Shown piece by piece: positions 52,151 to 56,432 of a DNA stretch of 64,000 nt. A program made the translations under genes and the position numbers. Source of the DNA: Amphiscolops sp. MND2022 (taxonomy: Eukaryota); contig OZ076409.1 of assembly GCA_964187785.1 (NCBI GenBank), positions 37,450,001 through 37,514,000 of the forward strand. Reading direction: 5' to 3'. The notes beneath the pieces are model-generated. The model made no database searches and was not told where the DNA came from. It worked only from the letters and a program-made list of their open reading frames with translations. The stretch's first letter is position 1, and every line of letters starts with the position of its first letter.

Positions 52151-55100
52151 ATGGCCGCTGGAGAATTATCGGAAGGAGAGGTTGCATCATTAGTAGAAGC
52201 GGCAGAAGGAGCGTTAGCTGAGCTATCCAGTTTGGACCATTTGTCGGACGAGGAAGGCCTCGTTGCATCAGTGGACGAATTACTAGAGTGTGCGACTCAG
52301 TCGGTATGTTGTCAGTTTGCCGGGCGAGTAGATGAATCCAATGTGGAAACCGCTACTACCTTACTCGAAATAGCTCTCTCTAGTGAATTCCGTGAGTACT
52401 CCAAAAAGTTTTCGTATTGTTTTCTTTGTATTGATGATCTGTTGATAAGGGCAGGCATTTATCATTTTGTGTTTAACTTCAGAACTCATCAAGGTAATGT
52501 GTGCATAGCATCGTTAATGCAGGATATGATTAATGAGCGGCACTCTGTAGGCTTTTCCCGGGATCTATTACCTTGGGTAGACTGTTGGAACGTTGGTTTT
52601 AAGCCGATTAACTGCCTGGCTGATTTTTCCCCATGTGTGTTGTAGAATCCTTGAATATGACCGATATTGTTGCCATGTTGCGGCGGATGCTACAGTCTAG
52701 AGCGTCGTCAGGTGATGTAGCAAGTGTGAGTTCGTGCGAATCCGAGCTCAGGGGTTACTGCTACACTCAGAGTGGTAAGTGAACAACTTGGTATCTTCTG
52801 TATAATATGGTGTAAGATAGGCATCATTTCAATCATCTACTGGTAGTACCGTATGACAGTCGTCCCTTGATTTTCACTGACATAAGGGTAATGTTGGAGA
52901 GGTCATTGTTAGGGGTGACGTATGTATGGTGACGGCATTGTTTACCCTTTTGTAATTTATTCCAGGTGTCGCGAGTGGTTCCGCTTTGAGTGTCGACACT
53001 GTGGTGGCTGCAATTACTCGGTTGGAAAAGGAGTTGGCTAGTGTCGTCAAGGCAACAGTTGAATCCACCCTGGGTCGGTTCAGCGATTGGTCTCGGCTGT
53101 ATCGCAGTTGAAACCTGTTAGTGGTTCGCTTGTTGCCATCCCTGGATACGATGTGCCTGTGACTCCTATATTGCCTGCTGGGGTAGTGTCGGTTGGATCT
53201 GCTGTCCCTGTGACTCCCTCAGTTGCTAGTTTGCAGGAGTCAGTCGCGCCATCATTGTTCGGCGAGAGTGCTGTGGTCGGGACGGTCAGTGTTGCGAAGT
53301 CGGCTGGTGTTACACCTGGTAAGAATCTCATAAGATCATGAGGGGGGTTTTAGGGGGAAAGATTTTAGTGATTACAAGAGCATCTCTATACTAAGTCTTA
53401 AAAGTTTTTTTTTGTTTAGAGTTTCACTTGTTTGTTGCAGCGCGTACTAAGAAGATCAAGACGCTGAAACCTTCTTATTTTGTGTCGAGTGATGTGGGGA
53501 CCTTCGTTGGTTTTCCTCGCAACAAGAGAGTGATCTCATCTCTGTGGGATCATTGGAAGGGGGTGGAGCACACCCGTTTGGAGCAAAAATATCGGATAAT
53601 GACCCACAGACTGCTCCTAGACAAGTCCTGCAGGCCTGTATCTGCAGATGAGGACCGCCGGAACAGACTTGCTCGTTCTACCGAACCGCCAGTTTTATGG
53701 AAACGGACCTGAACCTGACAGTCGAAGAACGCATGGCTATTGGAGAAGCTGAGGCAACAGAAGGGGCGCGACCACATTTGCCGAACGATAGTGTGGGTTA
53801 TCTGTGGCTGAATAATTTTATATCTAGCTTCCTGGTTGCGAGGTCCATCGAGGGGGTGCTCTATTCAATGGATGCCTGGCGAAGTTGCATGGCGAATGAA
53901 CTACATTTCGAGTGCCGGACACTGGACTACGCGCGTTGTCAGGTTATTTGAGATAATATTTCTTTAACATGTAGAGGGTAGTACCGCGTTGTTAAATCAT
54001 GTATAATGTGATTGTTGGGGTTGCTTTGTGGTTTTAATGTCGTTGTGTTCGGGACGTTATTTGTTATTTAGAGTCTGATACTGTACGGGAGTTACCCGTA
54101 TGTTGTGGAGCAGTTGGATACCCTTGTGGAGGCGAGTTCATGTATTGGCGTCAGCATCCGTCGGAGTGGCTGGCAGTGGCGTGGCGAGCTTCACATCATC
54201 GGCAATCATGGTGTGAAATCGGTGGTACTCGCTCTGGTGGCTGATGGAACTGGATGGGAGAAGAGGATGCTGGGTAACGTGGTACCCTTGCTTGCATGTC
54301 TGAAGGACAGAACAGTGCTAAAAACAGTGGCGGTCGAGGGAGAGACTCACGTTGGGAGAGCAGTGGCGGGCATGGTAGCTCCCCAGACGCCTCTCGTGGT
54401 TGGACTGCTAACGGCAAAGTCAGTTTTCAATGAGGTGCAGAGGCAATTCCGGGTGGAATTTTCAGGATTGGACCCGCTCAGTGTCTTAGAATACTTCCGT
54501 GTGAGAATGCTACCTGTAGTCCAGGAGAAGTTTTTGGATCGATTGCCGTTGTTACGACAGGTGAATATGTTATAAAGTAATTGAAGTAGTTTGCTGAAGT
54601 CGCTATTTGTGACTTTAGCTTCTTTTTTTGTTTTTTGGAGTTGCTAAGTGTAGTATAAGGTTTATATATTTGGACAGCTCTTTGGAGGTTGGTTATGAAA
54701 CGCAATTTTGTTTCTGTTGTTCTAGTATGTACGTGTCGGTGGTGAAGACATCACTCAGTTAGCATCCGTCTGTGCAGAAATTGTGGAGTACTGGAATGAT
54801 TTATCGTTGTATTTCGGGACTCATCGTCCAAACGTCACCTCAGAACTACGGCCGATTACTCCACTGGAAATCCGAGTGTTCGAAGACGCGATGATTCGTC
54901 CTCGTTTTGCTATCTTGCGGCTCGTTTTGGATTTATGTGAGTATGAGACAATAAGTTGTATAAAGGGAGGAGAAAAGATGTTTTTTTGTGTGTGTTATCT
55001 TTTCCGTCGTAGTAGTGAGGACTCATTTGCAATGCTAAGGCTACTATTGTACTTTACTTTGTTTGCAGTGGTGAAGCATTGTCCTAGACTGTGTGGACGT

Positions 55101-56432
55101 GGTCGAGACTACGGCGTTGTTGTGGAGAGGGAACTAGCTCACTTCTTGCGCGGGTTAATGAGGTTCATTTACCCAGTTACCAGTATTCCTGCAGAGTACG
55201 AGATTACAGCATTGCTTCAAGTTATTGACTCTGACTGTGTGGATGTCGATGCCCATTTGTACAAGAAACATTTCGGGCAATATTTCCGCTACGACATCAG
55301 TTCCCAACTATCCTTCTTTTACAAGGCAGTACAGAAGATGCTGGTGGGTTTGTGTCGTGGGCTAAGTGGATTATGGCAACGGACCTGGCCGAAGCATCTG
55401 AGTTTAACACCGTTTGATCCAGTGCTTATACACCAGGGTCCGGATGATCGTCGTGTGGACTCATTAGTGGAGACCTGTGCTGTTTTGACTGCCCACGGAC
55501 TAGTCGATCTGGACGACCGCGGTGTAGTACAGCAGCAGTACAGAGAAGTCACGCAATTCTTTAAGAAGCGGTGGTCGTTTTGTGTGGACGAGCTTCCTGC
55601 TGTGGACGATGTGATTGCTATGTGGCTTTCTTATCCTCATTGGACTCGGTGTGCTCAATTGCGCCAAGTAGTAAACTTAGTGCTCAGTGTGGTTGTTGTC
55701 AGTAGTTATCAGACTGAGTTTGTTGACGACGCCGCTACCGCTTTGGACCCTGATGAACTTGCTTCGAGCTTACATTTAGTTCGTAGTTGGTTCGGACATT
55801 CCTTCGTTGGAAAGTCACGACGTGATTTACGTGGCCTAATGCGTATTGCCGAGACGACGGACATGCAAGTCTCTGGTCTGTCCGATAGTGTACGGGCCAA
55901 GCCCTGGGACCAATTACTGGAAGTCGGGCTGGATGAGAGCTTATCATTTTGCGTAGCCTTATTGGATAAAGGACCCGAGGCACCTGTAGTGCCTATCGTG
56001 GATGAGTACAGGTCGTCTATTCTCGCACAGCTGAATGTGATGGAGATCATGGCAGCTAGCCCTATCCGTGTTTCTCCCAAACTTACTGCACTGCCGTCAG
56101 GATCAGGAAGTAAATCTAAAAGGCCTCGCAGTCAATCTGACGTGAAATTGAAAACGCCGAATAAGGATGCTAATGTGGTTGCGTCTACTACTTCTAAATC
56201 TGCCATACCGTCAAAGACTCGTGGTGCCATTCGCAGGAGTAGTGGTAGGAAAACGCCGTCGTCTACAGGACGTCGAACTGGAGGGAAACCTCAAAGCGGC
56301 AAAAAGCTAGTATTGTCATTAGTTGCTAGTGGGTCGGCCGATCAAGAAGATCAGTTGTCAGATGACGGTTTAGTGAAAACTAGTCGTCGGGGAAAACGTA
56401 CTATGAGGATCGAATCTTCTGACGAATCCTAA
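52151..56432 (+). CDS. Antisense multi-exon gene of unknown function inside the gypsy element (~1096 aa if two 1-nt deletions are repaired)
   Basis: Exons 52151-52391, 52646-52774, 52966-53318, 53441-53942, 54072-54560, 54726-54936, 55069-56432. All six introns are GT-AG with pyrimidine-rich acceptors and matching phases (1,1,1,0,0,1). Frameshifts near 53073 and 53693. Confidence 0.75.

Follow-up and report, generated by a model that had tools for sequence, protein, structure and literature searches.

The plant Tat/Retand retrotransposons carry open reading frames (ORFs) on the strand opposite gag-pol, situated between pol and the 3′ long terminal repeat (LTR), present in most copies and conserved (PMC7264820, PMC11963269; these and the other papers cited below are represented by excerpts, to which the statements drawn from them apply). 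One of these genes, gene23 of Grande, is preceded by a promoter of its own, and the protein it encodes is nuclear (PMC7264820, PMC11963269). The origin and function of such antisense ORFs are given as unknown, and their dissimilarity to other elements as lending no support to a nested-element origin (PMC7264820). In the fungi Botrytis and Sclerotinia, brtn is likewise an antisense extra gene within a gypsy element, the Boty-like retrotransposon (PMC7264820, PMC8365987). Here we describe a gene with this layout in Amphiscolops sp. MND2022, whose genome contains Wnt genes and is therefore that of an animal. The analyzed stretch, hereafter the window, comprises 64,000 nts (GCA_964187785.1, contig OZ076409.1, positions 37,450,001 to 37,514,000, forward strand) and contains a 14.7-kb Ty3/gypsy LTR retrotransposon, complete in outline, with gag-pol on the minus strand. 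On the opposite strand, in the interval between integrase and the 3′ LTR, lies a six-intron gene which appears to descend from a hAT-type DNA transposase. It resembles the plant ORFs in position and orientation, in being found in most copies and in its conservation, and differs from them in its animal host, its length (~1130 amino acids) and its traceable origin; moreover, the word intron is found nowhere in the excerpts of the plant Retand survey, whereas six conserved introns are present here.

The gene consists of seven coding blocks on the plus strand, 3289 nts in total in the window copy. The introns have the donors GTGAGT, GTAAGT, GTAAGA, GTTATT, GTGAAT, and GTGAGT, their acceptors are AG, and their phases (1, 1, 1, 0, 0, and 1) agree. 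These blocks, donors and matching phases had been reported in a first-pass annotation of the window, and all of them are present. Twenty other copies were aligned to the window, 18 of which were counted; L021 and L027 were excluded, their 5′ exons being missing or interrupted, and L012, which is the window itself, does not enter the copy counts. GT..AG is retained at 105 of the 108 introns of these copies, and keeping any intron breaks the frame in all 18, intron 6 being in frame and free of stops in the window copy only. The GT/AG bases changed at 1 of 120 positions in the five most diverged of the 18 copies (82–87% identical to the window), against 719 of 4596 (16%) for the other intron bases. 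From this conservation we infer that the transcript is spliced.

The first-pass annotation had also repaired two 1-nt deletions to obtain a product of 1096 amino acids, a reconstruction that has to be revised. Compared with 19 of the 20 aligned copies, the window lacks 37 nts near 53078 (36 with respect to one copy), 60 nts near 53532, and 1 nt near 53693; the 60-nt loss is in frame and removes the cysteine half of a zinc finger, and the twentieth copy has no sequence in the region of these deletions. The family model is 3387 nts long and encodes 1128 amino acids plus stop, and the whole frame is open in 1 of the 18 close copies. The exon borders are the same in the distant copies L044 (49–81% protein identity), L043 (30–68%), and L051 (31–59%), except for one mutated acceptor in L044 and one ambiguous acceptor in L043; in L043 and L051, moreover, tblastn gave no match for exon 2.

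Searches of the 1.07-Gb genome with exon 7 found at least 93, at least 100, and at least 92 loci, and the search with exon 4 scored 150 of 3121 candidates, all of these being lower bounds. Among the 93 exon-7 loci, 35 lie opposite one of the 103 listed integrases at a distance of at most 4 kb, and no locus shares the strand of its integrase, while a second list supplies 23 further exon-7/integrase pairs, all convergent and 2.2–2.7 kb apart. Seen from the integrase, at least 58 of the 103 listed loci adjoin a listed exon-7 relative. A convergent integrase was also found in five of five further subfamilies (55–73% identical to that of the window) and in L051 (64%), and slot and orientation are constant even between subfamilies with as much as 45% difference in integrase. 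The gene displays features of the aORF-3R class, namely an antisense position between pol and the 3′ LTR, wide presence and conservation. Against so regular an association stands that 58 of the 93 exon-7 loci are unpaired, the 103 integrases listed being a lower bound. Free-standing gene copies were not seen among the loci paired or fetched, and the edges of the cassette vary between copies.

With the frame taken from the open copy, the ratio of nonsynonymous to synonymous substitution rates (dN/dS) is 0.16–0.23 in five diverged copies (87–90% exon identity); L044 gives 0.10 and L043 gives 0.14, both with saturated synonymous sites. Close copies give 0.27–0.57, a range to be expected where decay after insertion dominates. 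Four of the five other frames have values of 1.0–2.5; the fifth, which is antisense and shares third positions, gives 0.24–0.34 with 12–36 stops. The coding frame of the gene is under purifying selection. The first-pass annotation had viewed the gene as an integral accessory component, naming coding constraint as well as shared LTRs, gag-pol and exon structure among sister copies as points to check, and had seen no terminal inverted repeats (TIRs) of a separate insertion around it. This view is upheld: alignment of the other copies confirms the common organization, dN/dS is 0.10–0.23 across subfamilies, the slot convergent with integrase is constant, and no inverted repeat or TIR pair brackets the gene within 51244–58200. 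A fresh nested insertion was rejected in view of the missing TIRs, the shared exon structure and the purifying selection. We regard the gene as almost certainly an integral, spliced gene of the element.

The gene and the rest of the element do not always share the same history. In some copies the gene is 94–98% identical and the LTR and spacer 70–85%, and in others ~90% of identity is shared in gag-pol and the exon 7 protein is only 42% identical. Overall, exon 7 identity spans 42–96% while that of integrase stays at 84–95%. These alignments (window 51330–56750; L004–L006, L023, L024, L026, and L039–L041) indicate that the gene is a cassette exchanged between subfamilies, as could happen by template switching while the element is reverse transcribed. 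Outside the family, an exon-7 relative represented by P0110 and the cluster P0215–P0217 is 24% identical, and its best match in the host genome reaches 28%. Judging from P0110, a second organism probably has members of this gene family.

The origin of the protein was examined with a profile of exons 4–7. The comparison group comprised 40 open frames of at least 150 amino acids (loci L052–L130) carrying the motif HG[NQ]AxVE[RS]GF, and has D, D, E, CxxH, and RW where expected for hAT transposases. HHalign matched the two with a probability of 95% and an E-value of 3e-8 over 429 columns, across three splice junctions. The score is 74, whereas 20 column shuffles did not exceed 18 and 20 block shuffles did not exceed 34; the reversed profile gave 0.5%. 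Taken singly, the exons map in order onto the transposase: exon 4 at 34–65, exon 5 at 178–272, exon 6 at 361–382 (weakly, E 0.19), and exon 7 at 440–630. The zinc finger of exon 4 aligns with the hAT finger (E 0.002) and is kept across copies. Two weak leads point the same way: the Atlas (ESM) clusters of exon 7 include Dimer_Tnp_hAT and FAM200/GTF2IRD2 (0.89–0.91, with few shared features), and Foldseek returned Hermes as the highest-probability row for the exon-5 model (0.80, E 0.15). A DEDD exonuclease had been considered for exon 5 and was dropped once the hAT profile covered exons 4–7 in order.

Several observations count against this derivation. The identity over exons 4–7 is low (14%); the group was selected by a motif which we take to be the hAT catalytic site and which is absent from the antisense gene; and the sole tie of the group itself to Pfam-positive hATs is a profile probability of 94%. 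In Pfam no family passes for any exon, zf-BED reaching only E 0.078 in 2 of 8 cases. The exon-5 model is of low confidence (predicted local distance difference test, pLDDT, 49), and Hermes has there a Z of 3.7 and rank 23. The exon-7 model found no clear fold match in PDB, VIA, or BFVD (best Z 5.4), hAT not being listed, and direct comparison of the gene with the Ac-type hATs of the host was negative. As for the Pfam hAT family, no match was obtained in 54 gene rows, and none in the intact comparison group either. Sequence searches of PDB gave no match for the profile of exon 7, that of exon 4 or that of the comparison transposases, Atlas no usable match for exon 5, and Rfam none. DUF4371 was not found in the genome, the control likewise giving no match, and none of 22 pattern matches in viral contigs was related. 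The exon-4 profile search for longer proteins returned 6 family pieces only among 8000 candidates, and among the best 150 of 184 matches in a representative-protein search none exceeded 439 amino acids and no annotated full-length product was seen. Weighing these results against the ordered and shuffle-resistant profile match, we consider a hAT-transposase origin of the gene highly probable; its beginning, then, was probably an ancient nested insertion of a DNA transposon.

In the host genome, the motif of the nearest hAT type occurs at 13 sites; two were fetched, and both elements are internally deleted. At L172 and L173, all that host elements keep of this transposase is its zinc finger and its C-terminal end.

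The antisense protein has lost what the enzyme required. The first Asp is replaced by R, S, H, Y, or F in 28 of 28 rows and the second by E in 31 of 34; at the site of the catalytic Glu, A, V, P, T, S, and M are the six commonest residues (ungapped reading past the last aligned column), and the CxxH and RW motifs are not kept. In hATs, the DDE, CxxH, and RW residues are needed for cleavage or hairpin formation (PMC4763223). An active transposase was rejected in view of these losses; lacking both the catalytic residues and TIRs, the gene is therefore not an active member of the hATs, though descended from one. Exons 1–3 and the basic tail are without counterpart in the transposase. The N-terminus is acidic (22 D/E and 5 K/R in 125 amino acids), and the tail contains a motif resembling a nuclear localization signal (NLS). 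The alignments thus show a gene kept under selection while its predicted catalytic residues were lost and an acidic N-terminus and a basic tail were gained. An env-like gene, already discounted in the first-pass annotation, was rejected as well: the gene is antisense, its N-terminus acidic, and no clear membrane segment was found, the top 19-residue hydropathy being 1.66 in a single window.

How such a gene could persist with its introns follows from its orientation. Sense introns are lost through retrotransposition and antisense introns are kept, and the data are consistent with this. We propose that a gypsy lineage adopted a hAT DNA transposase with its introns intact; because the gene reads backwards, the genomic RNA hides its splice sites, so the introns would survive reverse transcription. 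The promoter would be internal, adjacent to the 3′ LTR, and the spliced mRNA would encode a nuclear protein of ~1130 amino acids. The 3′ LTR itself had been suggested as the promoter; a conserved non-coding block inside the element (51406–51722), just inward of this LTR, appears to fit better and is our best candidate. The block is 82% identical in L043, where the identity of the exon 1 protein is only 42%, and only short traces of it occur in L051. It has a TATA-like site near 51512 and a donor-like GTAAGA at 51663; an acceptor-like TTCCAG ends at 52094. The 5′ untranslated region may thus contain a seventh intron, 51663–52094: of 10 copies, 8 have GTAAGA, which L043 has as well, and 9 have CAG.

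By analogy with TnpA and VANC, the finger and the transposase scaffold may bind repeated motifs of the element, and the protein may activate the element or shield it from silencing. In L051, the finger exon is 59% identical, compared with 64% for integrase and 33–35% for exons 5 and 7; because the finger is conserved nearly as well as integrase while the core drifts, we take it to be the working part. A candidate binding target is the palindrome TACATGTA, which occurs five times in the 1755-nt spacer between the gene and integrase and not once in 50 kb of host sequence on the left side, its half-sites amounting to 7.4 per kb in the spacer vs. 0.36 in host DNA. It is also enriched in 6 of 7 spacer stretches of other copies. 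The BED fingers of hATs bind short repeats (PMC10368747), and transposases are reported to be sequence-specific activators, one of which gave rise to TnpA (bioRxiv 10.64898/2026.08.24.746577). Two points weigh against this interpretation: the enrichment of TACATGTA was noticed after the fact and is missing in 1 of the 7 stretches, and exchange of the gene between subfamilies whose LTRs are ~75% alike fits poorly with an LTR-specific activator. We therefore hold the role of a self-directed DNA-binding activator or anti-silencer tentatively, with a confidence that falls somewhat short of even. The broader picture, in which a domesticated transposase serves as a swappable antisense factor for activation or anti-silencing and diverges quickly in an arms race with host silencing, is more speculative, and we would put it forward as a possibility only.

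Other functions must be weighed against this one. The protein could aid integration, binding the element's cDNA or the integrase complex and promoting nuclear entry or targeting to favoured chromatin by means of the finger, the catalytically dead clamp and the basic tail. Retention of the entire transposase scaffold, beyond the finger, and the NLS-like motif of the tail agree with such a role, and nuclear import of the pre-integration complex has been proposed for the plant antisense ORFs (PMC7264820); a tight partner of integrase, however, would not be expected to swap independently of it, as the diverging identities of exon 7 (42–96%) and integrase (84–95%) suggest that this gene does, and we consider this role unlikely. 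An action on RNA is quite improbable. Here the wide C2H2 finger would bind the unspliced genomic RNA and aid its export or packaging, in the manner of Rev or the CERV protein of Cer1; its spacing, C-x2-C-x16-H-x5-H, resembles in our view that of the RNA-binding fingers of the U1/matrin type, and the basic tail would be in keeping with this. While CERV offers a precedent (PMC10309623), the finger aligns with that of a DNA transposase, and the N-terminal fingers of hATs bind DNA (PMC4763223, PMC10368747).

The gene might instead be a brake or a weapon, repressing the element or keeping down the number of its copies (antisense RNA might contribute), or poisoning competing hATs or proteins of the host defence by forming dead complexes. 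The fast divergence outside the finger and the cassette swapping suggest conflict, the host has many hATs and deleted derivatives of the ancestral type, and antisense transcription beside pol can yield double-stranded RNA (PMC7264820). Nevertheless, an identity of 14% to hAT transposases makes mixed oligomers unlikely, the gene stops ~1.75 kb before the integrase frame, and young gene-bearing subfamilies are on the increase, an identical exon-7 score being shared by 14 loci, so that this explanation seems to us distinctly unlikely. Finally, the gene could be a decayed nested hAT that passively rides along, as its derivation, its loss of catalysis and the single fully open copy among 18 close ones might suggest. 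This has already been largely refuted and is hardly credible: dN/dS is 0.10–0.23 between subfamilies, splice sites are fixed amid drifting introns, and the same exon layout is found at 33–59% protein identity, with no TIRs. The broken copies are as expected from decay after insertion, pol being broken too in the window copy, and the shared catalytic loss and shared slot argue against separate captures of active hATs.

The element itself has the features of a Ty3/gypsy LTR retrotransposon. The two LTRs (1105 bp each, with TG...CA termini) differ at 19 positions, i.e., are 98.3% identical, and both ends of the element are flanked by the 5-bp target duplication GATAC. On the minus strand, Pfam matches follow the order gag with CCHC knuckle, reverse transcriptase (RT), RNase H, and integrase; the Pfam scan of the element gave no match for a protease. 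A primer-binding site (PBS) starting with TGG adjoins the 5′ LTR and a purine-rich tract, resembling a polypurine tract (PPT), the 3′ LTR. The window copy is decayed, with pol split over several frames and ~327 nts absent near 58220 compared with sister copies. The lineage has been recently active, because 12–16 loci have identical exon-4 or exon-7 scores (14 with the same exon-7 score, among the matches listed) and many integrase loci are single open frames of ~1650 codons. The gag frame opens within the LTR and crosses the PBS, so that each LTR holds ~115 gag codons (50056–50481 and 63557–64000, both on the minus strand). The coordinates of the features are collected in the table.

Table. 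Features of the Ty3/gypsy element and its antisense gene, in window positions
Feature	Positions	Strand	Remarks
Target-site duplication GATAC	50134..50138	.	second copy past the 5′ LTR, outside the window
3′ LTR	50139..51243	-	1105 bp, TG...CA, 19 mismatches to the 5′ LTR
PPT-like purine-rich tract	51244..51259	-	adjoins the 3′ LTR; from sequence
Conserved non-coding block	51406..51722	+	candidate internal promoter and untranslated first exon
Exon 1	52151-52391	+	ATG start; acidic, no known family
Exon 2	52646-52774	+	from copy alignment
Exon 3	52966-53318	+	helical start, then low-complexity linker; 37 nts gone near 53078
Exon 4	53441-53942	+	C-x2-C-x16-H-x5-H zinc finger and region preceding the hAT catalytic core
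Exon 5	54072-54560	+	hAT-type RNase H-like core; first Asp replaced, second mostly Glu, CxxH lost
Exon 6	54726-54936	+	start of insertion domain; RW motif lost
Exon 7	55069-56432	+	helical insertion domain, C-terminal hAT region without catalytic Glu, basic disordered tail, TAA
Non-coding spacer, gene to integrase	56433..58187	.	TACATGTA enriched; cassette boundary near 56560-56750
Integrase (H2C2, rve, p58 C-terminal domain)	58188..59655	-	~327 nts absent near 58220
pol: RT and RNase H	59633..62115	-	several broken frames in the window copy
gag (Retrotrans_gag/DUF1759, zf-CCHC) and TGG-starting PBS	62577..63771	-	
5′ LTR	63772..64000	-	876 nts more outside the window; L042:72-1176

The element adjoins an inverted-repeat unit of 700 bp in which an 11-bp repeat forms arrays (49429–50133), similar to a miniature inverted-repeat transposable element or a foldback element. 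Elsewhere in the window, a tandem array at 27556–38362 contains ~3.5 copies of a 3.1-kb unit, 97–100% identical. Exons of a host RING-finger gene (Pfam zf-RING_2), presumably resembling TOPORS, lie at 18682–19413, 38967–39392, and 41170–42294. There are two remnants of long interspersed nuclear elements with endonuclease and RT, at 11236–13570 on the plus strand and 14939–17106 on the minus strand, and an open frame of 550 codons (1–1650, minus strand) that leaves the window and has no Pfam match. A decayed stretch at 10044–10909 (plus strand), also without Pfam match, looks to us like a fragment of a hAT transposase.

Among described systems, the protein itself is closest to the hAT-type transposases, of which Hermes is a solved example and the HG[NQ]AxVE[RS]GF group the nearest relative. 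The order of finger, RNase H-like core, helical insertion and C-terminal region is the same; here, however, the D, D, E, CxxH, and RW residues and the TIRs are gone, the N-terminus is longer by ~250 residues, a basic tail has been added, and mobility is confined to the inside of a retrotransposon. TnpA of Spm/CACTA, VANC of VANDAL, and host-domesticated transposases offer the functional analogy, being non-catalytic, derived from a transposase or encoded by an element, and proposed to bind motifs of their own elements (bioRxiv 10.64898/2026.08.24.746577). The beneficiary of those proteins is the host or the DNA transposon in which they are encoded, whereas in the present case the domesticator would be a retrotransposon and the role is a proposed one. 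If true, the activator or anti-silencer reading would place this gene beside the plant VANC and TnpA as their equivalent in an animal, and one that crosses element classes. An enzyme belonging to one type of mobile element would have been domesticated by another type, as hosts do.

HBZ of HTLV-1 is a small retroviral basic leucine zipper (bZIP) protein. Like the gene described here, it is encoded antisense near the 3′ LTR, and its product is nuclear (PMC11963269), but it is driven by the LTR and belongs to an unrelated sequence class. The ORF3 of LTR elements in bdelloid rotifers (GDSL esterase, DEDDy exonuclease or env-like) is a captured third gene downstream of pol in an animal which need not be env (PMC5408684). 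It is expressed from spliced messages of the element, neither an intron nor a transposase being mentioned for it in the excerpts of that paper (PMC5408684), whereas here the gene is antisense and has introns of its own. The fungal brtn, in turn, is likened to the present gene by description, not by sequence, and a transposase origin was not seen reported in the excerpts concerning it. No animal antisense case occurs in the excerpts of PMC6431247, PMC8220671, and PMC13524379, and neither a gypsy element with a hAT-derived antisense gene nor an animal gypsy element whose antisense gene comes from any transposase was found in open-access papers or bioRxiv; repeat libraries (Repbase/Dfam), supplements and subscription journals could hold one.

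These comparisons bear on how such genes may be studied. The locus supplies an origin, a hAT-type transposase, for an antisense gene between pol and the 3′ LTR, where the published review leaves origin and function open, and it extends the antisense layout to animals with a large multi-intron gene, of a kind that annotation limited to gag, pol, and env would miss. With at least 150 copies, ranging from near-identical ones to subfamilies ~35% alike, and with swaps of the cassette, the family is a natural experiment in which elements sharing gag-pol and bearing different versions of the gene permit a comparison of binding motifs and silencing. Accessory genes in antisense orientation have been described from plants and fungi; the present one is notable for the animal host, the six introns, the origin from a DNA transposase and the exchange between subfamilies.

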